A DNA stretch of 63,955 nucleotides, filler included, from Hausera hauseri (GCA_046269625.1; 11 parts of 11 records of this genome joined end to end with filler, not necessarily neighbours in it); one strand, 5' to 3'. Counted from the first letter of the whole stretch, positions 8,900 through 59,866 are shown. Numbers and translations are program-made. Notes: generated by a model from the letters alone, not told the origin.

Positions 8900-10010
8900 T
8901 TTCTTCAAAGCAACCCTCCTCCTCCTATGCAGCAGTCTCTGTATTTAAGATGTTCCAGCTAGCGGCTGTAGACCACTGTAAAATGATCACTCTCCATAAC
9001 TTATCAATTTTCTTGTTTATTAACATAAATATGTGTCCAACCACTTGTTACTTGGCAAAGCATGTATCAGCTTGTGCTACAATTTACCAGTGCCTAACAA
9101 TATTTTACCATTAACCGTTTAATGAATTTTTTATCATCGAGGGTCCTTTATAGTCAAAACAACTTTTACTGAGAAATCATATTGCCGAACCAGTTTATGC
9201 GTTCTCCGCATAATACGTTTGTCAAACGTGCAACCGCCGGTCTTGAAAGAAAAGCGTCTATAATAATCTTCAATTTTAAATGCCTTATGCGACTAGATCC
9301 TGGCGATCTGATGATATAAATAACTGAAACATTTTCCTTGTCGAAGGCTTCGGTAGAATTTCTCGTGTTTGATCACCTCGATGGCAATTATCACTCGATT
9401 AGTACTATATCTAATTTTAAAAATGTTATTATGAAGGAACGTATGGTCAAACGCGAGGCTATGTTCCGATTCTAAATTAATCAGATCTCTTATGGATGAC
9501 TCTTTATTTGTGGTTTTTACTTGAAATTGACCAGCGATACTATAGAGATTGATCGAATGGAAGCGTTCTGACAAGATTAATATATCCGTGAGGAAGAATG
9601 ATGTAGCTTTTATGATTTGCAATAAAGCAAGTGATAGATTAGCCATGCTATAGCCGTTTAAATTGTTGGGGATTTGTTGGGTTTGTGGGTATTTAAGACT
9701 CGTCATGTAGTCATTGTGTGAGACAATATTAATTTGTCAGATTTGCGTTTATAACATGGTTTTTGGCATTATTGTGCCAATGTGTGGATCGGCTAACTGC
9801 TTGAATTTGATGAAAAGTTGCGGTTGATACTATAAAGAATAAAGTCAGTGGTTGAATAGATGTAATACTTAAACATAACGCAACAGTTATCATATATATT
9901 TCTACGGTAATTATCTTGATTTTGTTTACATTAAAGTTAAAGCCGGAGATAACCAGATGACATTTGGTTATCTCTGAACTTGGGGCTGCACCACTTGCAG
10001 TTTTTCTCAT
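8900..10010 (-). pseudogene. Additional decayed ORFs of unknown function downstream of the membrane protein
   Basis: ORFs 9729-10010 (hydrophobic) and 9293-9706 lie on the element strand. No family is recognised with confidence. Confidence 0.3.
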
Positions 10011-10016
10011 TAATTA

Positions 10017-20700: not shown

Positions 20701-20953
20701 AATGCGTTTTTAAATGTGTTTTTAAATAATACATATTCTCCAATTAATGTGGTATTGTTTATTTCCTCACTCGTTTTCGCTGGTTTTAGTGTTTATATTG
20801 TGCAGCTTGTATAAGGCTTTTGAACAATAGAAAAACATTAAATGATTATTAGAGTATTTTGGCACGATTTTTTATTTATAATATATTGTTTCTAATTTAC
20901 AAACTGATCTCAAAAATTTAATTGTTATTTCTGTAAATTATTTAGATTTTCAA

Positions 20954-21493
20954 ATGATTGACAACGCAGTCTCAGTAATCATATTCATCTCGCTTTTCAT
21001 TCTCTTCCTTTTGACATCTCTCGTTGGTGTATGTGTCGTGTTAACATGGAAACATCGTTCTAAGAACACCATACCTCAAAATAATTTAAACCTTGCACAT
21101 AACTTTTATATCCCAAAATTGCTGTTGACGGAAATTCAGCCAAACACAAAAGATCTGAAAGGAATGCGCCGCAGTACGGAACCGGAAAGTGTAACACAGT
21201 CAAAAGAATTTCTTGGTACTGATTGGAGACGGCATAGTGACCACGAAACTCTAAAAGACAAAAACAGTTTTCGTAAAGCCAGCTTACGACCGGATCGTTT
21301 TATGAGAAGAGGTCTATTGGATGTTCCATCCAACGTCGTCGTAACATTGTTGCCAAGCAAACTATGCTTCTCACTGAAGTATAAGTCAAAAATTCAAAGC
21401 CTTTTCGTATTGATAGAAAAAGCCACAAATCTTCCTGTGAACATTCAGAAATCGGCATCGTATTCGGTAAAGATCATGGTTCTCTGTGATTAA
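20954..21493 (+). CDS. Host gene exon: N-terminal TM anchor, linker and start of a C2 domain (synaptotagmin-like)
   Basis: Hydrophobic VSVIIFISLFILFLLTSLVGVCVVLTW followed by KHR. KLCFSLKY....LFVLIEKATNLP resembles the first strands of C2A. An acceptor-like TTTAG lies just upstream. Probably continues by splicing. Confidence 0.6.
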   Translation: MIDNAVSVIIFISLFILFLLTSLVGVCVVLTWKHRSKNTIPQNNLNLAHNFYIPKLLLTEIQPNTKDLKGMRRSTEPESVTQSKEFLGTDWRRHSDHETLKDKNSFRKASLRPDRFMRRGLLDVPSNVVVTLLPSKLCFSLKYKSKIQSLFVLIEKATNLPVNIQKSASYSVKIMVLCD

Positions 21494-24700: not shown

Positions 24701-25957
24701 GGAGATCTTTTTATCAAATCTGGGAATAAATTATTTTCAACAGCATGTCTTAATGCCATCATTGTTAGCCTTCTTGGCGTTTTATGAGGTTTTAATCTGT
24801 CGGGCAATAACAGATGGATAGTCTAGAGAATTAATAGTTTTCCGCACTCAATAGTGGGATCTTGTTTCATAAATTTTACACCACCTTCAAGTTGTATTTG
24901 ATTTACGTTGGTTTGTTCAAAGTTGCCTTCAAAATAATTAGCTTATCTTGTACCGGACGTTTCGTTGAATCCTTTCTTTAAGAGTCCTAAGTGGCAATCA
25001 AATTGTCTCGGTACATCCCAGACCACTGTCGACTTTATACTGTGACAATAACCTTTTCCGAACTTACAAAAAGCAGTATGGGTCATAGTTTTAGAATCAG
25101 TATCGAAATTAAACGTTTACTGTTTTATTTGCATTCGATATTGCTCATCAGCTATTACACTGGACTGAGGTCCTTTTTCTAAATCATAAGTTCTTATATT
25201 GCAGTTTCAACCTATGTCTCTAGTTCCAACAGCATATCTATCGGTTTCATGGATTTCACCGATTCCTGCTTTAATTTCATGCGATTGTAAGGTGAGAATC
25301 CCGTTTCAACTGCAATTTTACATGCTACTGGTGTTACCGATTCAGTATTTTGGTATGGAAATTGATATTAAAATAGTTTCATTCCATAATGCGTTACATT
25401 TTTAGACATGATTAATAAACATTCATAACCTTTTATTTGCACTGATTCTATATCATGATAAATGCAAAGCTCTTTTTGAACAGTTGTTAAATTTTTTTGG
25501 TGTGCTTCAGGAAAAGAGTCCAATTCCATTAATGAATAATAGTCATATTCGTACCCCGCCCTTGCAAAAGTCAGCAGTCAAGTATGAAATTGACATAGTT
25601 TCGTATAAATTATACAGATACAATACAATCGAACGATGATATGCAGTGTTATATAGTAAATCAGTATTTTGTGACATTACCCTCCATACGTATCAACACT
25701 TGAACTCGTTTTGGCATGTAGTCATTATACATAAACACACAGACACGCATGTCAAGCTTACGGAGGGACAGTGTGTGTAATAACATATAACCAAATTCAA
25801 GAAAACAAAATAAACTGCTTACTCACTCAGTGTGTGTATGTGTTAACGTGTTAAACGAAATTCAAGATGACATAAAGACTGATTACTCATGCAACCAAAG
25901 CATTCACTCTACTGCATCGTGTCATTGAAGTACACAAGCTGTTCATTTTTATTTACA

Positions 25958-34199: not shown

Positions 34200-36744
34200 T
34201 ATGTTCACAAGTACTCTCCCATGCGGGGCAACTCCTATATACAGCTTCCAGATTTCAGTCGCTAATAAAATACCATGCATCAATGTCCTTAATGATGACA
34301 ACAAGTGTTTCATGTATGCCATTTTATGAAAACTCGTACGGAATCAAAAACATGCAGAAGATAGAGTTTGGCTATACAATGATCTGAAGCACAACTATGA
34401 CTTCCAATGTATTAAGTTCCCGTCATCCATAAATAAAGTAAAGAAGTTCAGTCGACTCAACAATATATCCATCGGCAACATTGGATTGGATGATTAGGAA
34501 AAATTCTATCCCCTGAAGATATGCGATACTGAATTGGAAGATCCTACAATTATTGTATCAGTCCAGAATTTCCAAACGAGGACTACATTGAATTCAAGGA
34601 GTTCGAGAAAAAGATCAAGGTCCCAATAGTTATCTATTAAGACTTTGAAGCGATCTTGCGTCCAGTTCAGAGTTGCACTCCCAATCCCAAACATAGCAGC
34701 ACAACGGCATACCAATATCATGAACTGTCATCGTATTGCATGTATGCCAAAGGACTGGACAGTAAACCATTTCTATTCAGGGGTCCAGGTGCAGCAGCTC
34801 ATTTCATGAAACGACTTGAAGACATGGCTCATAAATATGAAAACATGCTTCAGCAGCATAAGGATAATATGAAAATATCGTGGAGACAAGAAGATGAATG
34901 GCGGAAGGCAATAACATATTACTTGTGGAACAAGTCTTTCACTAAGCAGAATCATAAAGTCAAGGATCATTACCATTTTATAGGTGCATATCGAAGGGCA
35001 GCATGCAACAATTTCGATCTTCGCTGCAAAACATGCACATGTGTGCCTGTTGTGTTCCATAATCTCAGTGGCTATGATTCCCGTTTTATAGTCCGAGAAT
35101 TAGGCAACATTGAAGGAAACATTGAGGTGATCCAAAACAGTGAGGAAAAATATATCACTTTCACCAAGCATGTTGGGAAAATTAGGCTTTGCTTCATAGA
35201 CAGCTTTCGTTTCATGTCGTCTTCATTGGGCAGTTTAGTGAAGAACCTCCCTGCAGAAGAACTCAAGGAGACGAAGCGATTCTTCCTCACTACATTTGAT
35301 CTAGTCAAGAGGAAAGGAGTTTTTCCCTATGACTATATAACTTCATGGGAAACACTAGATGAGACCTCATAGCCGGCCAAGAAGACCTTTTACAATATCC
35401 TCTCTGACTACGATATCGGTGATGCTGACTACCGGCATGCTCAGAACGTCTGGCATGCATTTCAATGCCGAACATTAGGGAAATACAGTGCTATTTACCT
35501 CAAGACGGACGTGCTGCTGCTGACAGATGTCCTTAAGAGTTTCAGGGATGTTACAATGAAGAGCCATGCTTTGGATCCGGCTCATTTCTTTACAACTTCA
35601 GGAAAGAGTTAGGCAGCAATGCTGAGCTATACCTGGATGCCGACAACTTGTATGGATGGGCAATGAGCGCCCCATTGTCATATGATAAATTCAAATGAGT
35701 CGCGAATCACTATACTGGACCTGGATTCCACTGAAGATACGGGATACATACTTGAGGTAGATATGGAATATCCGTCTTCCATCCACTCAAGGCATGAACA
35801 GCTGCCTTTCCTCCCGGAGAGCAGGCCCACGTCTCATGAAAAGTAGAGAAAGCTACTCTGCTATCTGGATAATAGGGTGAGGTATATACCCCACTACATC
35901 AATCTACAGGAGGAAGTTAGACATGAACTTCGTATTACTAAGATCCATATAGTCCTGCAATTCAGTCAGTCCATGTGGCAGCAGTCATACATAGATCTTA
36001 ATACGAAGCTGCGGACAAATGCCAAGAACGACATTAAGAAGGATCAATTTAAGCAATATAACAACAGTGGTTTTCGCAAGACCATGGAGAATATCCGCAA
36101 CAGGATCAACATCGAACTGGTCTCTGAGTGAAAGCAGGCAAAGAAGCTAATTGACAAGCCTAACTTCCACAGCAGCACCATATATGCTGGAAACTTGGTC
36201 AGCATCTATATGCGGAAAGCAGCACTGATGTTCAACAAGCCCATATATGTGGGTATGGCAATATTGGATCTATCAAATACCCTAATGTATCAATTCCATT
36301 ATGACATCATAGTCCCCAAGTTCAAGTCCATACAGCTGATGTATATGGATACTGATAATTTCATCTATCAGATCCATACAGATGATATTTATGAGGACTT
36401 TGTTAAGTTGGCACAGCATATGGATACCTCGGACTATCCGAAGGAACATTCAAACTATTCAATTGCCAACAAAAAGGTCCTAGGGAAATTCAAAGACCAG
36501 GTGAATGGAGCAATCGACTCGAGATTTGTAGCTCTCAGATCCAAGTTTTGTGGTCTAGACGTATGTGGTCAGATCAAAAGGAGAGCCGAGGGCGTTCAAA
36601 AGGCTACATTGGCCAAGAACATCAGTTTTGAGGACTATGTCAGAGTTCTGCAGGAGCAGACGCATATAATATCAGAAATGAGAAGGATCCAATCTAAGAA
36701 TTATAACATTCAAACAGAAACACTGCATAAGAAAAGCCTAGATT
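34200..36744 (+). pseudogene. Protein-primed family B DNA polymerase (Polinton/adintovirus type), nearly complete but disrupted
   Basis: CINVLNDDNKCF, DFEAIL, KDHYHFIGAYRRAACN, FHNLSGYDS, FIDSFRFMSSSL, KGVFPYDYI, YLDADNLYGWAMS, GYILEVDMEYP, NNSGFRKTMEN, YMDTDNF and LGKFKD. Confidence 0.92.
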
Positions 36745-36844: not shown

Positions 36845-37730
36845 AGTAATTTTTTTTTGTTCATTTTCTTTGTCTTAGTAAGCCTAACAGTAGTGCTTAC
36901 TGGGACGGTCCGTCTTGGCATCGCTGTTTCGACCGAAATTTTCCAAATTCTACTGTCTGGATAATATCTTCCTAAATAAGTGCTTAGTTTATTTATTTGA
37001 ATTTTATAGAAGTCAAAATGAATTCTATATTCATAACCTTCTGAGATTTTACAACAGATCTTAAGATTTTTGTTCTTGATGCTACAGTAATTTGGAGTTG
37101 GACTTAACTTGTTTATTTTAGTAAATTGGATTGAGACCTCCTGGTTGTTTGATACTCTTCCTTTTGTATTTATTTGGATACACTTGTTTTTCTTATTTGC
37201 TGAAATATTGACTATATTTTCATTTAATACCCATTTAATGGGGTCAATCGACTGTACTATGTCACTGAACTCTGTTACATTGATCTGTTCTTCGACGAGT
37301 ATTACAAGTTTTACTTGCGGTCTTATGGCTCCTTGCGTGAGCTCATAGTTTTTCTAATACATTCGTACGGTAAAGGTATAAATGTCTTCATAATTTATGA
37401 CACAACATTTTTCTAGAGCTCCATACGGAAAATCACAATGGGTCATTACTCGTTTATTCGCGTTCCATAGAACTACTTGGTATTTTACTGATTTTCTCAC
37501 GGCTTCGTCCGTCTTAAATAGCATAAAATCTCGTCTTGGGTCTATATTTCGGACCTTGAATCGATCTAAGGTATTTAAATCTTTCATTTTTATTCTTATC
37601 AATTCATCCTTCATCCATTTGTTTAATCGTTGTATTAAACCTCCTTGAGCATTAGTTCTCAAAACATATGAGGCTATCAGTGATAGTGCTAAGACTATCT
37701 ATATGTAAGACATAGGTCTAGTCACCATGG
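36845..37730 (-). pseudogene. Post-integrase secreted/membrane protein, copy A (truncated by contig end)
   Basis: Signal-like MSYI*IVLALSLIASYVLRTNA|Q. Repeats HCDFPYGALEKCCVINYEDIYTFTVR and YCSIKNKNLKICCKISEGYEYRIHFD. Confidence 0.6.
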
Positions 37731-37779
37731 ACAAGGTTTCTGCTTTCCTACATTTCGTCTTCTGGTTTACTTCCCTATC

Positions 37780-40700
37780 CTTTATACCCAATGGGTATCG
37801 TTTATCTGGTCTTATTTCGATTTTCACTACCCGTTGTATTGACACTACTTCTTCCTATCCGTTTTTACTAATATAAACGGTGGTGGGTGTTATTCTGATA
37901 CCTTTGTAAGGTCCTCTTCCGGTACGTGCAAGCTTTAACTTTGTGCCTTTCTTAGCTACGGGATAGTGCACATAAATCCAATCTCCGTTTCTTAAATCGT
38001 ACGGTTTTGCCTTCTTGTCGTATTGCTTCTGAAATCCTTCGTGATATTCCAAAGATAGCGTTTTCGCTACTTCCCAACACTTTTGTAGTCTAACTTGTAG
38101 AACTTCTACGAAATTTGGTTCTAGCTCCTCAATGTTTGCTTCATACGTAATCATTCCTAAGTCAGTAGGTTATGCTGATTCTCGTCCGTACATCATGAAG
38201 AACGGTGTAAAACCTGTCGCGAGGTGCAATGTGGTATTGATGGCAAATTTCGTATCTTCTAGAAATTCATCCCAATCCTTCTGATCCTTTGCGACAAGGT
38301 TGACAGTATTCGTATCAAAATGACATTATACGTTCAACCATTCCATTGCATTGGGGATGATAAGCTATCGTAGTTAATCTCTTGATTTTGAATATTTTTT
38401 TAATTTTATCGAATAGTTCGCTAGTAAAATTTCTTCTTCGATCAGTTAATATCTGATCGGGCGGCCCATATCTATAGATAATTTTTCTTACCACGGCCTC
38501 GGCTAATGTTTCTGCTTTCTGATCATATAGTGCTACTAACTCTACGAAGTGAGTTAAACGATCGACTCACGTTAGTATATATTTGTTATTTCTGTGCGTC
38601 GTGGGTAGTGGTCCTACGATGTCCATTGACATGGCTTGCATCGGCCTGTCTGGCACAGCTATCGGTTTCAACTCTGCCATGTAATTCCGCATTTTCCTTT
38701 GCCTACTCGCACATACTTCGCAAGCGCTTACTCAATTTTTCACGTCTATATATATATACTAGGCCAATAGTATTTGTTTAAAACCCTTTCTGACGTCTTC
38801 TTCCAAGACATATGTCCTGCAAAATACGAATCATGTTCTGCCATTAAAACTTCGGTTCGTAGAATTTTGCGTACAACTACTAATTTTCTTCCTTTTCGTT
38901 CGTAATACAACACTTTTTCATTGTTCTTGTTCTCGGAGACACAATATTTGTGTCCATGTCGTTGTAAATGTTTGTTTAACTGATGTCCTTTTGGCATTAC
39001 ATCTGTTTCGGCATATTCAATGATTTGTTGAATGACTCGATCCTTCTTCTGTTCGTATGAGATTTTGATTGCTCCGTCCAATGCTAAAGTTCGTTGCCTC
39101 TCTACTAATTCTTCAAGCTGATTTTTTTTCATCGTCACAATAGTACTTGTCTTCGTTTTTAATCGTGATAACGCATCTGCTCCCACGTTTTTTGCACCAG
39201 GTTTATATTGGAATTCAATATTGTATCTTGATATTTCTTTGATCCATTTACTCAACCTACACGTAGGGTTGTTTGCTCGTCTTTTTAGGGTTGTGACTGC
39301 TTTGTGATCTGTAACTATTATTATCTTCTGTCCATATACGTAAACGTTAAAATGCCTTAAGGCTTTTTTTACTGCTAACGTTTCTAATTCTGTCACCGAG
39401 TAATTTGTCTCTGCTTTCTTCAGGGAGCGTCCTCCGTAAGCGATTGGATGTTCTAATTCTTTGTCTTCGCGCATTTGTGCTAATTCATATCCGATACCTT
39501 CTTTGCTTGCGTCTGTTTTAATAATAAACGGTAAATTAAAATTAGGATATCTCAGTGCTAGTTCGCTGGTTAATATCTTCTTCATTTCATCGAATGCTTT
39601 TTGCTCAACATCGGTCCATCTCCATTTCCTTCCCTTTTTTAATAATCGGTATAATGGCGCATTGATTTTCGGTTATCTGGTACGTAGGTAGCAATATATC
39701 CATATAGTCCTAACCAATGTCTCAGTTCCTTTTGGTTCCGGGGTTCCATGCAGTCTGAAATTTTATTCAGTAATGATTTGTTGGGCTTGGATCCTCCTTC
39801 GCCAACTATATGGCCACGATAAAATACGGCGTTTTGAACCCATCTACATTTCTTTGGGTTCAGTTTCAAGCCAGCTTGTTCTAATCTCATAAGAGTGTCT
39901 TCAATATCCTTTAGATGCTCTTTTTCGTCTTTTGATTAAATCATTACGTCATCTAAGTACGCAAATGCGTGTTCAAGTCCCATTAACATTTTATTCATCA
40001 TCCTGGTAAATATGGCTGGTCCGGTGGTAATTCCAAACGGCATAGCGTTAAATTCATATACTCCATCGCGAGTTTTAAACTCCGTTTTATAGCGGTCTTC
40101 GTCTTCAATCTCTATTTGCCAGTATCCGGATTGTAAATCCAGAGTAGTGAACCATTTTGCTTTTGATAGCCTATCTAAAGCTTCCTTTACATACGGTAGG
40201 GGAAAAGAATCTTTTATCATAAGAATATTCAACGCTCTATAATTGATACAGAACCTATGTTTTGTGGTACTTTTCTTTTTGACCATAAGTATAGGTGAAT
40301 ACCATGATCTGAAACTTGGTCGAATTATATCGTCCTTTAACATATGTTCTAACTCCTTGGTTATCTCTGGCCTTAAGGAATGTAGCGGCGGATACAATTT
40401 CGGCATTTTCTGCTCTTCGAGATCGATTTCATCGTTGGATCCGGGCTTTTTCTTAAGCGGTATAGTTAACCTTAATGTCTTTGCTCGTACAATGTCTTCT
40501 TCGTCTTTTGCAAGAATTAATTTATATCGACATAATAATTCGTAAAACTGGCAATAAGCTTTTGGTGAAAAGTTTGTATCAACGTGTGGTGGAAATTCAG
40601 CGTATTTATACGATTTCTATTCAACCGTTATTGCTGATACTTTGTAAGTATGCCCTATAATAGAGTTAGCATATAACTTTACTGGAGTCTGGGCATTATT

Positions 40701-41594
40701 CACTATCCTTACAGGTATTCGTACAGATGCTACCCTGGTTAATATATTGCTCAATATTATATTCGGGTTTAACGTTCCTTTTGGTTCAAAATATACTGGT
40801 ATTTTGTCGTCTTGACAGATTTGTGCAAATATCAATAATTCCCTTCTAGGCGGAATGTTTTCGTCGATTGGAATCCAGACTTCTCCGGATTCTCTTTCTT
40901 TATTAACTTTAGTTCCTTTTATCGGTCCGAACTCGATTAACTTCGAGGTATTCAGATCTATCGCGACGTTTGATAGACGTCTTAATATATCACATCCTAA
41001 TACTACGTCGTCTGTTAAGTGTTCCATTATAAAAAATTCATGTCGGAATGTCTGTCGCATTATTTTAAGATTAGGATTCCATTTGAATTTCTGTCTTGAT
41101 TCTTCTCCGAAAGCTCCTATACTTCCGGGATCTGTTGCAAGCGGTAGTCGTAATTGATTTCGCAACATTTGCGGTATCGATCCGTTCTTTATAAACGATT
41201 TTTCTGATCTGGTATCTGCTAGTGTGTATACTTCCCAATCGTCAATACTAATTTTTGAGAAATGTCTACCTTCTTTTATCTTAGGTTGTTTAACGACGGA
41301 TATTTTGTACCCATTTATACTAATTTTTGGTGCTTTATTTTCAGCTACTTGTCTTAATTCTTCAATGGGGTACAAGCCATTATTTACACTGTTTTTGTTG
41401 TCTCGATCAGGTGTATTGATTAGCGGTTCTTGTTTGTTTGGGTTATGCAAGGATTGCATTCGTGGATTATCCCAAATTAATGATTTATTTTCTATATTCC
41501 GTGAAATCTTTAAAGAGTATATTACCTTGCGATCATCTGCCGACTGGCGGCATAATTCAGATTTTTCTATGGTTCGGTACATTTTCCGTAACAC
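37780..41594 (-). pseudogene. Gypsy pol, copy A (aspartic protease, RT, RNase H, integrase)
   Basis: LADTRS (protease), RFCINYR, LDLQSGYWQ, MPFG, YLDD, IKTDASKEGIG, VTDHKA, EHDSYFAGH, YHPQCNGMVER and RGPY. Confidence 0.93.
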
Positions 41595-41899
41595 GCCGTA
41601 CTGTTTTATCCCTTTATTGGGATCTTTATAACTGAAAGGCTTTCGATAGATTTCCCAACTATAGGAATTAATAGACTCTTATCGCTGTCTTCGTATTTCG
41701 GTGCCGAAGGGGGTAGCATTGGCAAAGGCGGCCTAAGTGCCTTCCGATTGCTTATCTTGGAGACCGCGTCTCCTCCCTTAGGCTTATCATCCGAATTGTT
41801 TTTCCGAAATTTTGAGTTTCTTTGTCCTATAGCAAATATAGGTTTTCTCTTTCGTTTCCGATTATAATAACCAACGTGTCGCGCCACATTACTTTTCCA

Positions 41900-43692
41900 T
41901 TTGTTTTCTTCATAGGCTTTCAAAAATTTTCCAAATGGTGTTATGACCGCGGTCCGGTTAGAGTAAATATTTTATAACCATTTATGATAGATTGAATTAT
42001 AGCTTTTATGAGTTGTACCAAGACATAGATGGCTAAGAATCTTGATGCAGCTTGTCCGAAAATTAAAAATTTTCCCCAAATTTTATACAGTATTTCTGTA
42101 GTAACTCTTTGATAATGTCCAACACCAAGTAGGGGTTCCCATTTTGCTTGATAGCGAGTGTCATCCATCACCGTTGGCATGGCCCTATTTAGCTCATGTG
42201 TACGCTGTCGGAGGAAAGCTAGGAATTGTCTGAAAGCTTCAATTTCCTTTGGTCTGTAAATTCCTTTACTTGTAATGTCAGCGAACTTATCGTCGGTTAT
42301 ACCTTTTAATATATTAGTTCCAGTTAATTTGCTAGGCGTAGATATTATTCCTCCATTTGGCAGACTTATCCAATCTGTCGCACTTCTCTTAAACATAGGT
42401 TTGCCTAAACCTGCTTTGCATTATTTCAAAATTGTTGGCTGTGTCGTGTTTTCTAGTAAGACTGTAGTGAGTTGCATAGCCAATCGGGGTACGTTTTGAT
42501 ATATGACCGGCAATTCTTGAATACAGCGTTTTTATTCCACGTTTAAAGATAATTCCCGTTTTTCGCATTCGTAAGTCAATAGTACCTCGCCCGTAACTCT
42601 TCCGAAAATACCCTCTTTCATTGGAATTACGAGTGATGCTAGTTCCTGATTTGTGTATATTAATGCCAGTTTTGTCCTCATGATTTCCATATCCAGTTTA
42701 CAATTATTCGCAATCATTTGGTGATATAATTCTGCTAGTCCAATCTGTCCTTTGTAATAAAAGTAATCATCTCTATTCTTGAAATAATCTTCTATTTTTA
42801 CATCTTGTGTTTCGGGAGCAAAAGTAGTTATTGCTGCTTCTGCTACGAAGAAGGCTTCGTAATTCGTGGAGTACATTACTACATTACATCTAGAAAGCAT
42901 TTGCTTCTTAATGTACTTTAATCCGTGATCTTCGGAGATCGGTATCTTGGGTGTAGATTGTTCAGCAACGTCCTTCCTTGGTCTAGCATTATTGTCGGTT
43001 GTCTATACATATCTTTTTCCTATGGTTTCGTTAAAATTTATCTATTTTATTTTAATAAAGTTACAATCATTCATAGGTGGTGGAGTCCAAATGACTATTG
43101 AGTTTCGGAAAGTACAGGCACCCTCTTAGATATGGCACTTCTGGTTTTCGGTATATGTTTTCGTAATACTATGGAACATCACCTTTTGGTTTCTCATTTC
43201 TGTTTCGTAGAAATCGACAACCACTATTTCTGCTTCTCTTCCTTTTCCGGTATCGTATTCACCTCCTTTATAGTATCCGGTGTGCATATCCAATTTTCCG
43301 ATTGCTACTTTATATACTCGAATTATTTTTCCTGGCTGAGCTTCTAACTCCATCTCATCCCATCTTAATCTTCCAGTTTCTTTAGCTTAACGGGGAATTA
43401 ACGGGGTCGTCGGTTTTACTATAGATTAATGTCCGTGCATGTTTCCATAGTACAAAATACTTCGCGATCGTCGCAACATGCATTCTATTCCGTCTATTGC
43501 GATCAAATCGCGCTGCTGGTAGAGAAAGTACTTCTTTTTGATAGTTACTAACTTATGAGGTCGGACATCTTTGCAGAATTCTAAATCTATCAAGGAATAT
43601 CTTTGTCCAACCTTAAATTTATCGCAGTTGTATATGGTGATTGCGCCAAGTTGTCTTATTAACATCATAAGTGTTATTAATTTAATCATCCA
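41900..43692 (-). pseudogene. Chuvirus-like envelope glycoprotein, copy A
   Basis: Signal WMIKLITLMMLIRQLGA|ITIYNC. Then CMLRRSRSILYYGNMHGH, GIFGRVTGEVLLTYEC, CIQELPV, KGIYRPKEIEAFRQFLAF, and TM WGKFLIFGQAASRFLAIYVLVQLIKAII. Block order matches chuviral/endogenous chuviral G as recalled. Confidence 0.8.
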
Positions 43693-46003
43693 ATTTGATT
43701 TACTGTCTCGCACTGAGTTAGTTGGCATTAAATTTTTTACCACATCTTCGATTTTAGTGGCTGGCCTGTTTCCATCTTCGTCATCAAATAGCTTAGACCA
43801 ATTTATTTCTCTAGGTATCTTCCTAGCAGCTTTTCTGACCAATCCAACGGTCCTATTGAATTCATTCTCCTTTAGAGGATTCGTTTTGGTTGCCAAATAC
43901 AATGTTAATTTCCTTAATTCTACCATAATTTTCTCGATTAAAACTTCGTCAGATAAGTCGCTTTTATTTATTTTCAACCGAGAGGTTCTCATAATCTTCG
44001 CAGCATCATATATTGCTTTTCTTTTTCTTCTAACATCTCATCTTTCAGTCTTGAATAGTTTACTATTTTGATAATATATCTCAGCAACTTGTTTAACTCT
44101 TAGCTCTGGGAGTTAGTCGCGAGCATGGATAGTTGCCTTAGTTCTCGTATCAGAGCTGCACTTTGGTCAATATCATCTCTTATTTTTCTCGGCCCTTCCA
44201 ACTGGTCGTTTTTGTTTCGGTGCAGTTGGTATTGCTTCACTAATCGGTACTAAATTTTTATCGTATTGTTCCTTATCTTCATATGTTTGCAAGTATTCGG
44301 AATACACTGAAGCATTTCGGACTCCCATGATTTGTTCCACACATTGGTCAGTTTTAGTCTTTCTCGTGGCTTTTGCTTTAATCTGTTCATCGAGTATAAT
44401 CCAACCATCTATTAACTGTTCTAATTCGTCCAATATTCTGCCTCTAAAATAGAGTCTATAATTTAGTTCGTTTTTACCACCATTGTTTATTAGCTATTGT
44501 CTTACGTTCTTCACAGAGGAATACGTCGTAAACTCACATTCTTTTCATCTATCCACTTAGACGACACTTTAACTTTTAACGTCACTTGAGGTTTAGCTCT
44601 TAAGATTTTAGCGTATTTTTTATTAAAAGTTTTGGCATAGTATTATAAAGTGTGTTTTAGCCAGACAATCTAATTAGAGTAGAAATAAGTTGTCTTAACT
44701 TATTTTCCGTAATATCTACGTTAATCAGTTCAATTAAATTTCTTTCAGTTAACGCAGAATCCAGAAGCACCTCCATACTGAATCTCCGATCTTGTGGATA
44801 GATTTCGGTTTCGTACAGGTTAACAGGAGTTTTCGGATTCTCGATAACTATTGCATCTAAATACGCATCACATTCTGGATCGTATTCCTTCTCTGGGGGC
44901 CCATAATCAATTATTGACATGAGATTGTCGAATTACATTAGCATTATGTACCATTTCTCTTACTTCACGTAGTTTTTGTTGCCTCTTGATCATTTGTGTC
45001 GTCCGGAAACAACGTCCGTTGCCGGAAACATGATGCAATCACGTTGACAGCTGACAGAGTTCGGCTGCCCGAATGAATCATTTTTCTTGGTAATCGGTTA
45101 GGTCGGCGGTTACATCTTCTTGCCATCATTGTAGGAATTCAGATTTATTGGCTATTTCTAATTCGGTAATAGCGTATTTACTTCTGTAGACTTCCAACTT
45201 TTTAGTTAACTCATCTCTTTCTATTTTTCTTTGGTTGGTACGATTTTGGGTTTTCTGAATGTGACGTTTTCGGTTCTGCAGCTGTCTCATTTCTACTGCA
45301 GCTGTGTCATTTCTACTAATAACAGCGTTAATTTGCTAATTGCTTCCAAAATTTTAGATTCGGCGTCGATTTCTTCAATTAATTTCTTTATGAAGCTAGT
45401 TTCCTAAACAGTTAATTGATGATCTTCCATTATCTTTATTAATTCAGTATGCCATTTTTGATCTGATCTTGGCATCCAATTCGATGGTTTTCGTATAAAT
45501 TTTAATGCACCGTCTACAGAATTCTCATAGTCTGGACAGATTTTTAATATATTCAAATCTTTTGTCGAAATTTCATTTATGGGTTTAGTTGTCAGGTACC
45601 GGACTCTTTCTTAACAAACATTTCTACATTTTGGGTAAAGGTCACGTAAATGTCATGTTTTGTTGCGACTTGAAATCCTTTTCTTTAATCATTTTGTAAA
45701 TTTCTTTTAGTACTGCCATTTCTTCATTATTATGAATTTTAGTTGTGTTTAATGTAGAGTTTAAATGATCTAAGGCAGTCTGCTCTTTTTTAGGGTAAAG
45801 TTTAGTAATATTGTCTGATTGTGACTTTTCTTTATTTACAGTACTGTTTTCTTTTCCACACTTCGCCGTAATTCTGCTGCAATTACTTCAGTCATTACGA
45901 TCATTATTGCCGTTATTACCATGGTAATGTCATTACTTCAACGTTCTTCTGCTAACAAGAATTTGGTAACAATGGCAAAATTCAAGTAAAAAACAGGATT
46001 GTT
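43693..46003 (-). pseudogene. Unknown charged/helical region upstream of the glycoprotein (Gag-position domain X), copy A
   Basis: ORFs 44657-44920, 44173-44433 and the first 100 aa of 43426-43992. The 3' part aligns with 52164-52727. No clear capsid domain or intact CCHC knuckle is seen. Confidence 0.5.
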
Positions 46004-48189: not shown

Positions 48190-50570
48190 TTCCGATGCTG
48201 TGGCTTTTAAAAGTCGAATGTGAAAAATTGTTCTACCTGCGATAGGACAAAATACATTGAAAATTTTCTGGGTTCCATTTTAAATGAATCAATAGGAATA
48301 TTGGAAGATAATCTGAAGGAGCTGAAAACTATCAAAGTTAATTTCATGCCAGAAGCCGGATATACGGATATAAATAGCGAGGAAACAAAAAGAATATTTA
48401 AAACAAAAAACAAACCACTTTTGGAGTAAAATAGTGAATTTTTGAATAATGAGTTCATACATCTTATACATGAAGTTGAAGAAAGTCACGGAAAAGACAG
48501 TGGTTGGGCACTTTTGGTGATTAAAAAATTAATCATTCGTATACATCATTCGTATTTTCCATGAAGAGGAATTTCTTATGTTAAACTTCATCACTGGATT
48601 GAAAATAAAAAGGCGTGCATTAATGTTAAGAACAGTGATCAATTTTGTTTCAAATATTCAATATCATCAAAATTTATAAATATACATGCGGAAAGGGAGG
48701 ACTTATAGAGACCTTTAGCATGACTATGATTTCTCATGTATCAGCTTACCACCATCACTTCATGACTGAGTAATTTGAAAAAAAATAATTTAATTTCAAT
48801 TAGTATATTTGCGATTGATGATTGACAGAAAATGTATCCGCTTAAGGTATGTAAATTTGGAAAAATTGATTATAGGGACCTGCTTCTGTTAAATGAAGGA
48901 GACAATGATAATTACATATGATTCAGAAACCTTTTACAACTGGTCTCAAAACACCAATGACCAAGGAAATATTGAAGTGTAAAACATGCTTGACTCATTT
49001 CAATGATGATATTGATCAACTGAAAATAAAAGAACACATTGTATTGCAATGAAAATGAGTTCTTACTGGTTGATTTGCCAAAGGAAAATTACATAATGTT
49101 TAAGGAGTATGAAAAAATGCTCTTTGAAAAAATGTGACTTTGAAGCAACATTACACCGATACATGGATGTTATCTAAATCTTCAACAGTCCCATACATCA
49201 GGTTATTATTTGCATGACTTTTCTTCATTTTTTATATATTCACAAATATTTAATGAAAGCCCTTTTTTGTATGGCGGTCTAGGTGCAGCTTGTTTATTTA
49301 TGAAGAGATTGGAGAATATCGCAAATTCATTTAAAATATGAATCCACAATACATGGTTATTACGCTGGATGAAGAATCTAAATGGGAAAATGCCACAAAT
49401 TGTTATTTGTGCAGTAACGGCTTTATTTTAGACAATCACAAGGTCAAGGATTATTGTCATATCACAGGCTATTTCATAGCAGCGGCCTGCAATTCATTCA
49501 ATTTACGATGTCGAACAATCAACCTTATTTGTATTGTTCATAATTTAAGAGGGTATGATTCCCACTTCCTTATTAGATAACTAGGTGAAGATGTGGGAAA
49601 GATTGATATCATCCCTCACAGTGAAGAGAGATATAAGAACATCAAAATACATAGGGAAAACAAGTCTCAGATTTATTGGCAGCTTCAAATTTGAGTGCTT
49701 CACTTGACAGTTAGGCAAAAAAGTCTTCTGTCAATTGATTTAAAAGAAACAAAATTTTACATGCAACAATTTTTTACTTAGTAAATCATAAAGGGCTTTT
49801 CCTCTATGATCATATTACATCACGGGAGAAATTAGATGAAAATTCTCTAAAGACAAAAAGAAATTTTACAGTTCACTATAAAATTCAAACAGCAATGATG
49901 ATTATAATTATGCCCACAATGTATGGCAGGCTATTAATTGTAAAACGATAGGTGACTACATTGATATATATCTTAAAACTGATGTGTTACTAGCCTACAT
50001 TCGGGAGCTTCAGGGATATTACCATGGGAAATTACAAACTGGACCCAGCACATTTCTTTATTGCTCCTGGAATTTCGTGGTCAGAAATGCTTAGATATAC
50101 TGGAGTGAAATTGCAGATGCTCAAGGACTACTTTCTGATATTGATGCTCGAAAGGGGGATTTCTGGAGGAATTTGCTAGGTAGTCCATCGATATGCAGAG
50201 GCAAATAATCAGTGTGTCAAATTATGATGAAACGAAACCATCTTCTTTCATCACATATCTGGATGCTAACAACTTGTACGGTTGGGCAATGAATCTCAGT
50301 CTCCCATGTGATAATTCTAAATGGGTATAATATCCTGATAGCATAGATATCATGAGCATTACCGATGATGCTGAAACGGGATATATCTTTGAGGTAGATA
50401 TTCACTACGATTGGCTTCAGCATGCAGAACATGATCAGTTACCTTTCCTACCGGAATCAAAAAAACCACCTGGCGGAAAATTCAGAAAATTATTAACCAA
50501 TTTAGGTGATAGAGAACGATACGTGGTGCATTACGTAAATTTGCAGCAGGCTATCCGGAATTTGATTTAG
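48190..50570 (+). pseudogene. Protein-primed family B DNA polymerase (Polinton/adintovirus type), heavily decayed and 3'-truncated
   Basis: GKDSGWAL, NKKACINVKNSDQFCFKY, KVKDYCHITGYFIAAACNSFNL, VHNLRGYDSH, YLKTDVLL, YLDANNLYGWAM and GYIFEVDIHY. Confidence 0.88.
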
Positions 50571-52163: not shown

Positions 52164-52727
52164 GTGATAGCCAATGTCACAAGACCGAAATGCCCTGTCG
52201 GTAGGCCTAAAAGGACACGAGAAGTCGATTATGATGCAGAATTGATTAGAAAATTAAGACAAATATCATTTCCGACTTTCAGCACAGATAATGAAGAATT
52301 AAGCGAGTTAATGAAGAATTTAATACGAATTGTAAATTACTCAAGCCTTCGAGGTGACTCATTAGATGACAAGGAAAAGGTCATATTTGATGCAGCTAGA
52401 ATGATGAAAAGTTCGCGTTTTAAACTATCGAAAAGTAACCTAACCTATGAATCGGTAATCGGAAAGATCATAATAGAAAACACGAATAAAGAATTAAGAA
52501 AAGTATTACTGTATTTAGCTATCAAAATAAACCCTAATCGAGAGAATGAAATCAATAGAGATATAAGCTTATCACGAAGAGCAGCGAGAAAGCTGCCCCG
52601 CAAAGTAACTTGGTCAAGACTATTTGACAAGGAAGAAGACAAACGGATCAGTAATAGTAATAGACTCGACGATATGCTACATAATTTGACAACAACGGAT
52701 ATTAGCCACCGGAAGAGTGAATCAAGT
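52164..52727 (+). pseudogene. Domain X (unknown helical region) in frame with the glycoprotein signal peptide, copy B
   Basis: IFDAARMMKSSR, LRKVLLYLAIKINP.RENEINR and RRAARKLPRKVTWSRLFD align with copy A. Confidence 0.6.
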
Positions 52728-54550
52728 TGGTTATTTAACCTCTTCACCTTGATAATATTAATAAAGCAAATAGGCGCTGTTACCGTCTAAGATTGCAATA
52801 AATTTAAACTACGGAAGAGATATTCCCCAATGGATTTAAAGATGTGTGAAGATGCCAGGCCGCACAAGTTGGAAACGGGAGAGAAAAATTACTTCCTGTA
52901 CCAACAACAAGAATTGATATCGTTAGACGGAATGAAATGCATGCTGAAACAATCTCGTAGCATTTTTCACTGTGGGTCAGTACACGGACATTCCTCAATA
53001 ATCAAACCAACAACTCCTTTAATCTCAATGAACCTAGAACGCAAGCACTGCAAGCAGGCTAAGTAGACCGGAAAAGTACAATAAGACAATATGGAATTAG
53101 AAATGTAACCAGGAAAGATAATTAGGGCATACAAAGTAGTAGTCGGAAGGTTAGATATGCATAGCGGACATTGTTACGGAGCGGAATACGACACTGGAAA
53201 AGGATTACAAGCAAACGTGGTAGTCGTGGATTTCTACGAATCAGAAATGCGATAACAGAAAGTAATGTTCCATAGTGTCATCAAGTTATACACCGAAAAT
53301 TAAGTGTCATTTGCAAGACAAAACCTGTGCTTTTAGAAGTTACGTTATAATATGGGAACCTCCCTCTGGAGGAAGTTGTAATTTTATCAAAATTAAGGAA
53401 CTAAAGTTCACTGAAACTACCGGAAAGCGATATGTGGATAAATCTGATACCAACTCAAGGACACACGAAGACGTATCGGAACATCCTACGCCTACTATAC
53501 TAGTTTTGGATCAGTATGGACTGAAATTTATTTAAAAGGAGATGATTTCCCGTTGTGACGTAGTAATGTTCGCTATTAACTATGAGGCACTCTTTATCGC
53601 CGAAACCGAGATAAATGCGAAGACCTATAAGTTGAAAACACAATATATCCGGATTGAGGATTACTTAAAGAACAGAGATGATTTCTTTTATTACAAAGGA
53701 CAAGTCGGGATAACGGAATTATATCACAAAATAATAACGAATGACTGTAAATAAGATACTCAGATCATGAGGATGAAATTGGTCCTTATATACACCAACC
53801 CAGAACTGGCTTCTCCAATAATTCCTATGAGAGCAGGAATTTTCGGTCGGGTTACGGGCCAGGTATTCTTAACCTACAAATGTGAAAAGAAAGATGTACC
53901 CATTAACGTTGAAGAAAAACGCTGCATTCAGGAACTTCCTGTTATTTATCAGAATACTCCAAGGTTAGCTACACCGTTGACAAGAGTCTTATTGGATAAT
54001 GCAACTTAACCAACAATCCTTAAAGACTGTAAAGCAAGCTTAGGAGAACCCATGTTTAAACGCAGTGAAAAGGATTAGGTTAGTTTGCCAAATGGAGGTA
54101 TTACTATCGCTACAAATAAATTAACAGGAACAAATCTTTCAAAAGGAACTACAGATGACAAATTTCAAGACATCTCGTTTAAGGGTATATATAGGCCGAA
54201 AGAGATCCAAGCCTTCGGACAATTCCTTGCTTTTCCGCGACAGCGAACACACGAACTAAACCTACCCATGACCACTGTAATAGACAATACTCGATATCAA
54301 GCTAAATGGGAATCATTGCTTGTCGTAAACCATTACCAACGAGTAACCAAGGAAATACTCTACAAAATTTGGGGAAGATTTTTAATTTTCGGACAAGCAT
54401 CATCTGGACTTTTAGCAATATATTTCTTAGTACAAATGATCAAGGCAGTCATCCCAGCAGTAACAAATGGTTATGAAATATTTATATTGACCGGATTTTC
54501 ATGTAAAATACTGACTGCAATCATAGCGCCGTTTGGGAAGCTTCTAAAAG
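52728..54550 (+). pseudogene. Chuvirus-like envelope glycoprotein, copy B
   Basis: Signal WLFNLFTLIILIKQIGA|VTV*DC. Then CMLKQSRSIFHCGSVHGHSSII, GIFGRVTGQVFLTYKC, RCIQELPVIYQNTPRLATPLTRVL, KGIYRPKEIQAFGQFLAFP, and TM WGRFLIFGQASSGLLAIYFLVQMIKAVI. Confidence 0.82.
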
Positions 54551-54903
54551 CGTACAAAGAAAATAGACGGAATGTGGACGTAGAACGTCATGTCGGCTAT
54601 TATAATTGTAAACGAAAGGGAAGGTCTATGTTTCTGTACAAGCGGAAATTTACAAAACCTAACATGCGAAGAAATAATTCCGATAATGACGAGCCTAAGG
54701 GAGCAGAAGTAATTTCGAGTGCAAACAGACATAAAACATATTTTGTCATTAAAGCACCATTGCCTATGCTACCCATTACCGCTTTAATCTACGAAGACTG
54801 TGACCAACAATCAATGGGTTCACATCAGATGGAAATCTATAAAAGGGCAATTAGTTTATAAGACCCTTACGAAGGGACAAAACGCTACGGGATCGAACGG
54901 AAA

Positions 54904-57900
54904 ATGTGTTACCGACAGTCCGTGGATGATCCCAGGATGTTGTGTTCCCCGAGAGAACCTCGAAATATAGAGACTAAATCGCCTATCTGCCAAAACCCAA
55001 GGTTAAGAACCTTCCGGAACATAGAACCGCACACTAACAACCGAGAACCATTAATCAGTACTAATGAAGCGGAAGAATTAAACATCGAAAACAATGAATT
55101 TTATCCAAACCGGGAACTAAGGCAATTGGTAGAAAACATAGTATCTTCTCCAGAGATTCGAATTAACGGACATAAAATATCGGTAAATAAACGCCCAAAA
55201 GCTACATCAAACTGTTTTGAAAAATCAATCAAAGGAAGGCCTTTCGCCAAAATTATTATCAAAGACTGGGAAGTTTATGCGCTAATTGATACAGGTTCTG
55301 CGATGTCTTACATTAAAAACGATTCGATACCTCAAAAGCTAAGAGGGCAACTATACCTACCATCCACGAAAGATCTACGAAGCACAGGACCTTTTGGCCA
55401 AATCTCCACATCCATGTTTAAATTGAATTTAGAAGTTCAAATAATTGGAAAATTCTTCCATCACGAATTTGCAGTTATGAAGCAATTAACGGATGACGTA
55501 GTTCTAGGATGCGATATACTAAAAAGACCACCAAATACATCGATTGATTTACAAACGGAAAAACTAATAGAAATCCGACCAGATAAAGGCATAAAAAGTT
55601 CTAAGAAAAGAAAATTTGGAGAAGTATGGATACCTGTGGACGAAAACATTCTACCAAAAACAGAGATGATAATTTACGCGAAAATTTAGCAAAATGACGA
55701 GCAACCAGTATATTTCGAACTAAAAGATACATTAGATCCGAATATAATACTCAGTAGCATACTAACAAAAGTATACTCCGATCGTGTGCCGATCAGAATA
55801 ACAAATAACGCACAGATCCCTGTCAAACTTCATGCTTATACCACTCTAGAATATACCTATAGAGTATCATCAATAACTATTGAAGTAAAGCCTTATAAGT
55901 AGGCCGAATTTCCACCTCATGTCGAAACTAAGTTTTCTTCTGAATCCTATTGTCGATTCTATGAATTATTATGCCGCTATAAATCGATTATCGCTAAGGA
56001 CGAAGAAGATACCGGTAGAGCAAAAGAATTAAAACTGATTATACCATTTAAGAAAAAGCCTGGTTCGAACGAAGAAAGAGACTTGGAAGACCAAAAGGTG
56101 CCAAAATGGTACCATCCGTCACATTCACTAAGTCCCGAGATAACGAAGGAAGTCGAACGAATACTTAAGGCCGATATAATTAGGCCCAGCTATAGATATT
56201 GATATTCACCAATCCTCATGGTTAAGAAGAAAGGTACCACAAAACATCGATTTTGTATTGACTACAGTGCCTTAAATAATCTTATGATGAAAAATTCTTT
56301 CCCATTACCATCAGCAAAAGAGGCTTTAGACAGACTCTCAGGAGCAAAATGGTTTACCACTCTGGATCTACAATTCGGATACTGGCAGGTGGAAATTGAG
56401 GATGAGGATCGATACAAAACAGCGTTGAAAACCCACGATGGCGTCTATGAATTCAAAGTTATGCCGTTTGGTATTACTCCCGGACCAGCTATTTTTACAA
56501 GGATGATGAACCAAATGTTAATGGGATTAGATCATGCTTTTGCATACTTAAATGACGTAATGATAGCGTTACGGACGGAATAGGAACATCTGAAGGATAT
56601 CGAACAGACGCTGATGCAACTAGAACAAACCGTATTGAAATTGAACCCAAAGAAATGTAAATGGGCTCAAAACTCCGTATCCTACCTCGGCCATATAGTT
56701 GGAGAAGGAGGGTCAAGACCAGACAAGTCACTGCTGAACAAAATATCAGACTCTATGGAGCCGCAAAACCAAAAAGAGTTAGGATATTGGTTGGATCTAT
56801 GCGGATATTACGCCACTTATGTGCCAGACAATTCGAAGATAAATGCACCTTTATATCGTCTAATTAAGAAGGGAATTAAATGGAAATGGACCGAAATCGA
56901 ACAAAAAGCTTTCGAAGAAATGAAAGGATATTAACCAGTGAAACGGTCTTACGGTATTATGACTTTAACTTACCTTTTATAATCAAGACAGATACCAGTA
57001 AAGAAGGTACTGGATATGAATTAGCTGAGAAAAGAGAAGACGAAGAATTAGAACACCCAATCGCTTATGGAGGACGTTCTTTAAAGAAAGTCAAAAGGAA
57101 TAATTCCGTTACAGAATTAGAAACTCTGGCCGTAAAAAAAGCGCTGCGACACTACAACGTTTACGTGTACGGGCAGAGGATTATAATTGTTATTGATCAT
57201 AAGGCTGTTACGACTTTAAAGGGACGAGCAAATAACCCAACAATTAGACTTAACAGATGGATTGAAGAAATCTCTAGATACAATATTGAATTTTAGTATA
57301 AACCAGGAAACAAGCATGTAGATGCCGACACACTATCAAGATTAAGAACCAAAACAAGTGCAATCATTGTAATGAAGAAGAGTCAACTTAAAGAAGTTAT
57401 AGATCGCCAACAAGCTTTAACGTCAAATAACGCAATTAAGATCTTGAGCGAACAAAGAGAGGATAAGATCATCCAGCAGATCATAGAATTTGTTGAGAAG
57501 GACATAATACCAAAAGGACGACAATTAAAAAAACACCTACGTAGACACGGATATAAATATTGTGTTATGCATAACAAGGGTCTGAAGAACTTCCTGTATT
57601 ACGAGTGAAAAGAAAGAAAATTAATGGTTATTCCGAAAAAACTTTCGAATCGAAGTTTTGATGTCGGAACATGATTTATATCTGGCAGGACACATGTCGT
57701 GGAAGAAAACATTAGAGAGAATACTGAATAAGTATTTTTGGTCCAGTATCTATATTGACGTAAAAAATTGGATGGGTGTTTGCGAAGTATGTGCGACTAA
57801 ACAAAAGAAGACAAAGAATTACATGGCCGAGTTGAAACCAATCAGTGTACCTGATACACCCATGCAAGCCATGTCAGTGGATATCGTGGGNNNNNNNNNN

Positions 57901-58660
57901 TATTGATCGACTAACCTATTTTGTCGAGTAAATAGCATTAATTGATCAAAAAGCAGAAACTCTGGCCGAAGCTGTAGTAAGAAGAATCATTTACCGATAC
58001 GGACCTACGGACCAACTATCAACAAATCAGGGAAGAAACTTCACAAGTGAATTATACCAGAAGATTAGCAAAATATTTGAAATCAAGAGGTTGACCATGA
58101 CCGCATATCACCCTCAGTGTAATGGAATGGTCGAACGGATAAACGCAACTGTCACCCGCATACTATCAGTAGTTGTGGCCAAGGACCAAAAGTATTGGGA
58201 CGAATTCATAAAAGAAACTCAATTTTCAATTAATACCACCCCACATCCCGCAGCAGGATTTACGCCATTTTTCATGATGTATGGACGTGAAGCTGTGTTA
58301 CTCACAGACTTAGGAATGATTCCGTACACAGTCAATCCCGAAGATTTAGAACAAAACTACAAAAATGTTGGGAAATCGCCGAGGGTTGACCCAAGAATAT
58401 CAAAACCAGTTTAAGAAGCAATACGATAAAAAGGCTAAGCCACACGATTTAGAAGCAGGAAATTGGGCCTATGTACATTATCCAGTAGCCAAAAAGGGCA
58501 TGTCCCTGAAACTGACTCGTACAGGCAGAGGGCCATACGAAATTATCAAAACTACGCCGACCACAGTATATATTAACAAAAACAGAAAGGAAGAAGTAAT
58601 ATCAATACAAAGAGTCATTAAGACGGAGATACAACCCGATAAACGTTACAATTTACGCCG
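54904..58660 (+). pseudogene. Gypsy pol, copy B (PR, RT, RNase H, integrase)
   Basis: ALIDTGS, RFCIDY, LDLQFGYWQ, MPFG, YLND, IKTDTSKEGTG, EHDLYLAGH...CEVC, AYHPQCNGMVER and RGPY. Confidence 0.93.
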
Positions 58661-58665
58661 ACATG

Positions 58666-59866
58666 AAATGAAAACTTCTTCAATAGTTGTTAGACCAATA
58701 TCGTATGTTAAAATATCGTTAGCCCTACCACTAATTGCCTCTTATATCCCACAAACCCAGATTCAATGGTGGGGTGACGAATCTACGCTAGAGGATGTAT
58801 ATGGGATACGAAAAAGCGGCTTAAAGACAAAAAATACTATACGAGAAAAGAGACCAACCGCCGAAGAGGTTTAAAGAGCAAAAGACACTAGATTATTACA
58901 ATCAATGACCGTTCAATATTTTTCCCCAGACGCTGTGTGCGTTGGATTTAAAACTTGGAGACCCCATCACGATTTTGGAAGCTTTCAAATTGTCCTATAT
59001 GATGAAACAACAAAAAGTTAGAAAATGTGACTTTGAACCTGGGGAATATACGCAATGCTGTGACATAGATTTCGAACATACCTATATTCTTACTTATCGC
59101 ATGCTCTTGCCAGACTTAACAGAGATCTATATCGAAGTAGATCCACAACGTCGATTAGTTATTCCCCCTTGGCCAAGGCGATTTGGAATGAAACCCATCG
59201 AAATGCTACAATCCACCAACCCAGAGATAAGACTATTAGACGAGAATATAAAAGAGATTTTAATAAATCACGAAAAACGGTGTATCCAAGTAAATACTTA
59301 AATAGGATTAAATTTTAGCCGAGAAATTAGTTTTGTTTTCGAAGCGGTAAATGGACAAACTCCAGAAGTAAAATACTGTTCCATCCATGCCGGCGTACAA
59401 CATCCATGTTGTAGATTGCCAGTAAACCGAGAATTTATAATAAAATTCGACTTATATGAAGTGCGGCCTAATAAACCTAGTATACAGTTACGAACTTACT
59501 ATCCAGAAAATAGAATATGGAAAATTCCGGTGGGAAAAACAACCGAAAAGTCGACACCTAAGGTTAGTCCCACTACCAGAACAGTTACGTCGAGCAATGT
59601 ACCTAAAAAGAATTAGAAAGCGTACCCATAAAATATTCGGCATATCGATTTAGAATCGTGTTCTTTGTGGAAGAAAAACAAAGTTACAATATACATATAA
59701 GTTGCCGAACAACATATAATAATCAAATTGTAACGTTGCTTAAAAATACTTATCAGACAGATTGCAATTTACTAAAACCACAATCTGAATACATAGTACA
59801 ATTATATACACAGAATAAGCAAAGCCAAACAATTACAGTACGTACCGTATACGAAATCCGTACAGG
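58666..59866 (+). pseudogene. Post-integrase secreted/membrane protein with FN3-like repeats, copy B (truncated by contig end)
   Basis: ISYVKISLALPLIASYIPQTQI|Q lies in the same ORF as the GPY tail. Repeats KCDFEPGEYTQCCDIDFEHTYILTY, YCSIHAGVQHPCCRLPVNREFIIKF and DCNLLKPQSEYIVQLYT follow. Confidence 0.62.

Follow-up and report, generated by a model that had tools for sequence, protein, structure and literature searches.

Gene content of two diverged copies

The stretch of DNA analysed here (the window; 63,955 nucleotides, filler included) consists of 11 joined contigs, parts of 11 records of Hausera hauseri (GCA_046269625.1), and carries two diverged copies of a retroelement in which the envelope gene (env) lies ahead of pol. 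Copy A occupies the entire contig at 36845-46003 on the minus strand and copy B the entire contig at 52158-59866 on the plus strand; since the contigs were joined, the copies are not neighbours. They are ca. 70% identical overall (70-76% over long ungapped arms), and in both copies the two contig ends are cut within coding sequence. A Pfam search of the reading frames of both copies, with stops read as an undefined residue, showed a common domain order: a domain termed X, signal peptide, class III fusogen (G; PF24664), transmembrane segment (TM), linker, protease (PR), reverse transcriptase (RT), RNase H, and integrase (IN). In copy A, PF24664 matched at 43689-41953 (E = 5.7e-34), followed by RT (40283-39807), RNase H (39618-39223), and the IN zinc finger and rve domains (38868-38354). 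In copy B, PF24664 (E = 2.9e-37) was followed by RT, RNase H, and integrase, and the protease match was weak (E = 5.5e-4). Both copies thus have the pol order of Ty3/gypsy elements (Metaviridae), PR-RT-RNase H-IN, and upstream of it a class III env of the glycoprotein B (gB) type with signal peptide and TM, as seen from PF24664 and hydrophobic segments. The preliminary description of a minus-strand copy at 36845..46003 with env before pol, diverged from B, agrees with these matches. The features of the two copies are as follows.

44242..46003, minus strand: copy A, coding region ahead of X, decayed and running off the contig; purine-rich, with alternating stop-poor frames
43693..44241, minus strand: copy A, X, helical domain with two cancelling frameshifts near 44195 and 44017
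43642..43692, minus strand: copy A, internal hydrophobic signal-like stretch, in frame between X and G by translation
41955..43641, minus strand: copy A, G, class III fusion glycoprotein (Monjiviricetes / herpes simplex virus gB type; PF24664, E = 5.7e-34) with a C-terminal membrane anchor and in-frame stops
41275..41954, minus strand: copy A, linker, likely a cytoplasmic tail, with frameshifts near 41954 and 41681 and PSAP and YPxxxL motifs
40617..41274, minus strand: copy A, aspartic protease with an altered active-site triad, then a beta-rich PR-RT spacer common to relatives
39223..40283, minus strand: copy A, RT and RNase H (RVT_1, E = 1.2e-33; RT_RNaseH_2, E = 1.2e-31), frameshift near 39673
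37790..38868, minus strand: copy A, integrase (H2C2, rve, C-terminal part) with several frameshifts
36845..37789, minus strand: copy A, Y, in frame after integrase; signal-like segment near 37710, two cysteine-bearing FN3-like modules, and the start of a Ser/Thr-rich stalk, truncated by the contig end
52158-52700, plus strand: copy B, X
52740, plus strand: copy B, signal peptide
to about 54500, plus strand: copy B, G and TM
54496-55281, plus strand: copy B, linker, then PR
56221-56700, plus strand: copy B, RT, then RNase H
57637-58658, plus strand: copy B, integrase
59628-59802, plus strand: copy B, third FN3-like module of Y

Reading frames and lesions

Frameshifts were located by a frame-blind nucleotide alignment of A with B. 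Copy A shifts near 44195, 44017, 41954, 41681, and 39673, with further shifts in integrase; copy B shifts near 53299 and 56924, with further ones in integrase and Y. Across 2092 aligned codon pairs, none of the stops in A (14) coincided with those in B (17), and the linker shifts of A are absent from B, confirming that the lesions are not common to the two copies. The shifts that had been put near 41940 and 41680 in A, where B is in frame, and near 53280 in B correspond to those at 41954, 41681, and 53299. It had also been stated that X and G stay in one frame in A. The ATG codons at 43992, 43353, 42900, and 42396 do lie in one frame; this continuity, however, holds only from 44016 down, as the two cancelling shifts (44195 and 44017) lie inside X. 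In copy A, a single frame from X to TM contains 7 stops in 688 codons. In copy B, a single frame covering the second half of G and everything up to the end of RT contains 9 stops in 1215 codons as compared to 87 and 100 in the off-frames.

Contigs from one public sequencing run were aligned to copy A; 11,375 did so, mostly at less than 95% identity, and several carry indels relative to A at five of its frameshift sites. In the linker region, 1214 contigs align, and the listed pieces tile the linker. All the pieces are short contigs, none of which spans the element. These alignments show that the family is large and old and that the damage is copy-specific.

The linker was translated and selected

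Synonymous sites between A and B are near saturation (pS 0.60-0.76), and hence A and B are better seen as members of two subfamilies than as sisters, and the ratios of nonsynonymous to synonymous substitution (dN/dS) are approximate. These ratios were calculated by the Nei-Gojobori method on codon pairs in ungapped blocks of at least 20 bases, with stops excluded. The linker between TM and protease gave a dN/dS of 0.19 (0.21 and 0.17 for its halves) and X one of 0.18, neither of which is near 1. The values for other regions were 0.11 (TM), 0.11 (PR), 0.08 (RT), and 0.06 (IN), and dS was saturated for G, the PR-RT spacer, and RNase H. When the linker was read in its two off-frames, dN/dS rose to 1.24 and 1.51 (off-frame values across regions, 0.83-2.4). 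Its mismatches by codon position (59/53/115) were enriched at the third position. We also compared the proportions of nonsynonymous and synonymous differences (pN/pS) with 1000 runs of a neutral shuffle preserving the substitution spectrum. The linker showed 0.41 against a neutral value of 0.83 (minimum 0.54), with 0 of 1000 shuffles as low; X showed 0.41 against 0.87 (0 of 1000), and G 0.24 against 0.83. The four linker motifs that had been claimed to be conserved at the amino-acid level were all found in both translations, and elsewhere in the window the linker matches only the other copy. The linker was translated and selected, and X, G, TM, and pol likewise show purifying selection.

These data bear on the possibility that the gene order is as described and that env and pol were separate open reading frames (ORFs), connected within the linker by a programmed frameshift or by reading through a stop. 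Copy A does shift frame twice there, and copy B has one linker stop at 54859. However, A's shifts are absent from B, copy A has a sense codon opposite the stop of B, both sides of each break in the linker are constrained (dN/dS 0.21 and 0.17), and intact relatives, described below, run unbroken through it. Separate ORFs are, on this evidence, improbable.

Env and pol in one chain among relatives

A HMMER search with G-linker-PR of copy B returned 412 proteins at E values up to 0.001. Among the best 10 of the 412, eight had the fusogen and then the protease in one chain by Pfam; in the remaining two, P0009 showed a protease motif by eye and P0005 stops at TM. A domain scan covering 20 of the more than 150 G relatives listed found G, RT, and RNase H in one chain in six intact relatives (P0001, P0002, P0007, P0017, P0019, and P0151). 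CCHC or gag domains lay ahead of G in P0008, P0010, and P0153. The G of the relatives is ca. 24-31% identical to that of the window copies, and weaker G matches occurred in other settings, e.g. with DUF5641 or Ig domains ahead of G. The two best RT matches among 98 were env-first polyproteins (47-48% identical), and a PR-RT spacer profile built from env-first relatives matched copy A at 40874-40640 (E = 2e-7). Since intact relatives have the fusogen, TM, linker, protease, and RT in one chain, the env-before-pol layout is a lineage trait, as had been proposed.

Chance or a nested insertion might have placed a chuvirus-like glycoprotein fossil ahead of a gypsy pol to which it is unrelated; Jingchuvirales glycoprotein fossils in arthropods are often flanked by fragmentary Gypsy elements (PMC10084718), and a lone G fragment is present at 24939-25538 of the window. 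In A and B, however, both junctions are collinear in two copies ca. 70% alike and show purifying selection, and the nearest G relatives are retroelement polyproteins (140-225 bits), while most stand-alone-sized G proteins of roughly 650 amino acids score 85 bits or less. The linker dN/dS and the intact one-chain relatives refute such an origin, to which we give next to no credence; they bear out the earlier claim that the linker was selected and is not a chance nested insertion.

Other searches gave the following results. Word-index searches with X-G (3355 candidates) and with X (388 candidates) found no relative, which is weak evidence. A profile of the G alignment matched only protease structures among Protein Data Bank (PDB) sequences. 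DNA scans matched 0 of 594 metagenome stretches, 0 of 21 genome contigs, and 2 of 187 viral contigs; the two viral loci were rejected as retroelements because their ORFs of ca. 660-700, 490-610, and 2160 amino acids look, judging from size, like negative-strand RNA virus genomes. Multiple tandem aspartic-protease-like domains lie between Env and RT in P0001, P0004, P0008, and P0151, as compared to one protease in the A/B family; P0151 has seven gag-asp_proteas stretches together with ankyrin and C2H2 domains.

X, the linker motif, and the protein behind integrase

X lies directly upstream of the signal peptide, a slot in which P0005 and P0003 carry Bcl-2 Pfam matches (E = 0.00096 and 0.2) and which BCL2 occupies in Burro. 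A model of X of copy B was all-helical, with eight helices (pLDDT 57). On position alone, X is possibly Bcl-2-like. The hydrophobic segment matching the signal stretch of A was present in copy B and in seven of nine long relatives at the scan threshold. A basic GRP-type motif, AT-hook-like by eye, lies upstream of X in B (52190-52215, plus strand), with a related motif in A (44190-44215, minus strand), and a GRP-type motif also precedes the signal peptide in P0001, P0004, P0008, and P0151.

Of 12 linkers, 11 contain Tyr-Pro, mostly 30-60 residues ahead of the protease active site, and eight contain YPx[LI] or YPxxx[LI], as compared to 1.4 expected from shuffles; P0017 was left out of this count because the TM anchor pattern missed it. 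The motif is similar both to late domains that bind ALIX and to the aromatic-Pro sites at which retroviral proteases cleave.

Behind integrase, both copies encode a protein, Y. In copy A, the 406 codons that lead from the C-terminus of IN to the end of the contig contain 3 stops, and copy B continues from integrase to the signal-like segment of Y in frame (0 stops in 127 codons). The two cysteine-bearing modules of Y are 35% identical between A and B, and the third module of copy B gave weak fn3-type Pfam matches (E = 0.021 and 0.13). Foldseek matches of a low-confidence model of Y (pLDDT 49) were mainly FN3-type receptors (best E = 2.9e-4), and VIA aligned this model with an FN3-type receptor domain (Z 8.2, root mean square deviation 2.6, 88 aligned residues). 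All four relatives extending beyond integrase show signal-like and TM-like segments there; in both window copies, the TM of Y is lost beyond the contig end. A third, distant gypsy relic (RNase H, integrase) lies at 8479-13391 on the minus strand. Its integrase runs on into a tail with the plan of Y, in which a signal-like segment (near 11382) is followed by beta-type modules bearing cysteines and by a TM (near 10154). No published description of Y or of the linker motif was found in the literature, although Sacco 2022 or Grohme 2018 (text or supplements of either) or Repbase entries may already describe Y.

Other features of the window

Other Pfam matches in the window were to Helitron, hAT, RNase H/RT, and DNA polymerase B fragments, which indicate a repeat-rich eukaryote genome. 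A Helitron (Rep, PIF1 helicase, endonuclease) at 1693-7729 on the minus strand is broken at 3596-4309 by an ORF that has a hAT dimerisation domain (Pfam). Protein-primed DNA polymerase B fragments, likely Polinton relics, lie on the plus strand at 34641-35372 (Pfam) and 49335-50570 (by eye). The lone G fragment (24939-25538, minus strand) is frameshifted and ca. 27% identical to A, with no pol match nearby on its contig. A 203-amino-acid ORF at 20882-21493 (plus strand), with one TM segment and a tail resembling by eye the start of a synaptotagmin-type C2 domain, is probably a host exon.

Proposed organisation of the element

Copies A and B are very probably two independently decayed Ty3/gypsy long terminal repeat (LTR) elements with a class III fusogen ahead of PR-RT-RNase H-IN, likely encoding one polyprotein of the kind known from planarian Burro elements. 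In such a polyprotein, a cytosolic gag and accessory part, in which X may be Bcl-2-like, would come first. An internal signal peptide would then direct G into the lumen of the endoplasmic reticulum, and signal peptidase would release G. TM would stop transfer, and the linker would form the cytoplasmic tail of Env with Pol attached as a tether. The element's protease would then free Pol, perhaps at the conserved linker Tyr-Pro; this site might serve, in place of cleavage or besides it, as a YPxL motif for budding. Y, predicted to be a membrane protein of the FN3 type with a likely attachment role, would be exported through a second signal peptide located behind integrase, and the product would be an enveloped particle that buds and moves between cells.

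Several observations weigh against this reading. Neither copy is intact, and the single ORF of the A/B family would be that of an ancestor reconstructed from decayed sequence. Profiles from relatives detected no capsid or zinc knuckle (gag) within the window, both contigs starting inside coding sequence, and neither contig contains an LTR, primer-binding site, or polypurine tract, nor a 14-mer common to the contig ends. The region of copy A at 44242..46003 had no meaningful Pfam match, its 44500-44640 piece having been searched out of frame, and none to the gag, knuckle, or ubiquitin-like profiles of relatives; gag of this copy likely lies beyond 46003. A ubiquitin-like stretch near 44360-44600, guessed by eye and split by a frameshift, might correspond to the Ubi2/SUMO-like domain that Burro has upstream of BCL2; profile and Pfam searches gave no match for it. 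For X of copy B, whose model is weak (pLDDT 57), no Bcl-2 match was obtained by Pfam, hhalign (probability 0.1), Foldseek, VIA (best Z 5.9), or a small profile. Y is weakly constrained (pN/pS 0.70), and its model (pLDDT 49) gave TM-scores near 0.27. In an RT tree of 38 of the 98 matches with A and B, the two copies formed a long branch (0.95) whose placement as the sister of the env-first clade had a support of only 44%. The Tyr-Pro motif, chosen after looking and in relatives that are not independent, is a lead.

A further proposal, which we advance tentatively, is that A and B represent a Burro-like lineage that diverged deeply (of the 98 RTs compared, none exceeds 48% identity) and that would build a two-glycoprotein enveloped particle from one polyprotein, with the fusogen tail tethering Pol and bearing a YPxL budding motif and with a fast-evolving FN3 attachment protein behind integrase. 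If true, this would be a split between fusion and attachment as in paramyxoviruses, within a retrotransposon. It is also possible, though doubtful, that this layout yields no free infectious particles and that G and Y serve in membrane anchoring or direct cell-to-cell passage. The element is known here from its genes alone, and Env fused to Gag and Pol would force a 1:1:1 ratio, which is unusual for retroviruses. On the other hand, the cysteines of the G ectodomain are kept, and the constraint on this ectodomain is about that on integrase (66% and 72% amino-acid identity between A and B, respectively). If Y and the linker motif work as proposed, this would account for the way in which one polyprotein can package Pol, bud, and choose its target cells. 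The likely second surface protein at the tail is the less familiar part of the element, of which A and B themselves are dead relics.

Comparison with known systems

Nematode NERV, attributed to Sacco et al. 2022, is reportedly a metavirus whose env, an RNA-virus-type glycoprotein, comes ahead of pol, and is said to encode a single gag-env-pro-pol ORF. The env-before-pol layout itself is not new, having been published for the giant gypsy-like LTR retrotransposons Burro/GYPSM1 of planarians, with a mononegavirus-like env in frame between BCL2 and PR, described as the first such case (PMC6431247), and for GAG-ENV-POL elements (errantiviruses) of the gB type in Nematoda, Bryozoa, and Platyhelminthes, which are not monophyletic and include six from Schmidtea (Chary and Hayashi, PMC13524379).

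The latter elements and A/B alike have a Ty3/gypsy pol with a gB-type env ahead; the survey in PMC13524379 retained intact elements, whereas A and B are relics. The cysteine pattern of G of copy B follows that of the Schmidtea C1a sequences given there, in a by-eye comparison. The main text of PMC13524379 does not contain the words 'polyprotein', 'fibronectin', 'late domain', or 'Burro'.

The likeness to Burro/GYPSM1 is drawn from description, the named Burro sequences lying outside the RT comparison. Gag, LTRs, and overall size of A/B fall beyond the contigs, and no ankyrin, BIR, or MATH domain was seen in either copy; the PR-RT spacer, dUTPase-like in Burro, had no dUTPase match by Pfam. A/B differ in the predicted FN3-type membrane protein after integrase, which is unmentioned in the Burro section of PMC6431247. 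In both Burro/GYPSM1 and A/B, env lies in frame, with accessory domains of the gag side upstream and PR downstream of it, and a spacer domain separates PR from RT. Both also include decayed copies with stops and frameshifts, reported for Burro in Dugesia japonica (PMC6431247). Env in frame with pol in one polyprotein, a feature of Burro/GYPSM1, would have held also for the ancestor of A and B, judging from the single frame from G to RT in B, the lack of a shared break, and selection on the linker. The present analysis provides a quantitative check that the env-before-pol junction was selected and not accidental, and adds a divergent family to this known but little-studied class of elements.

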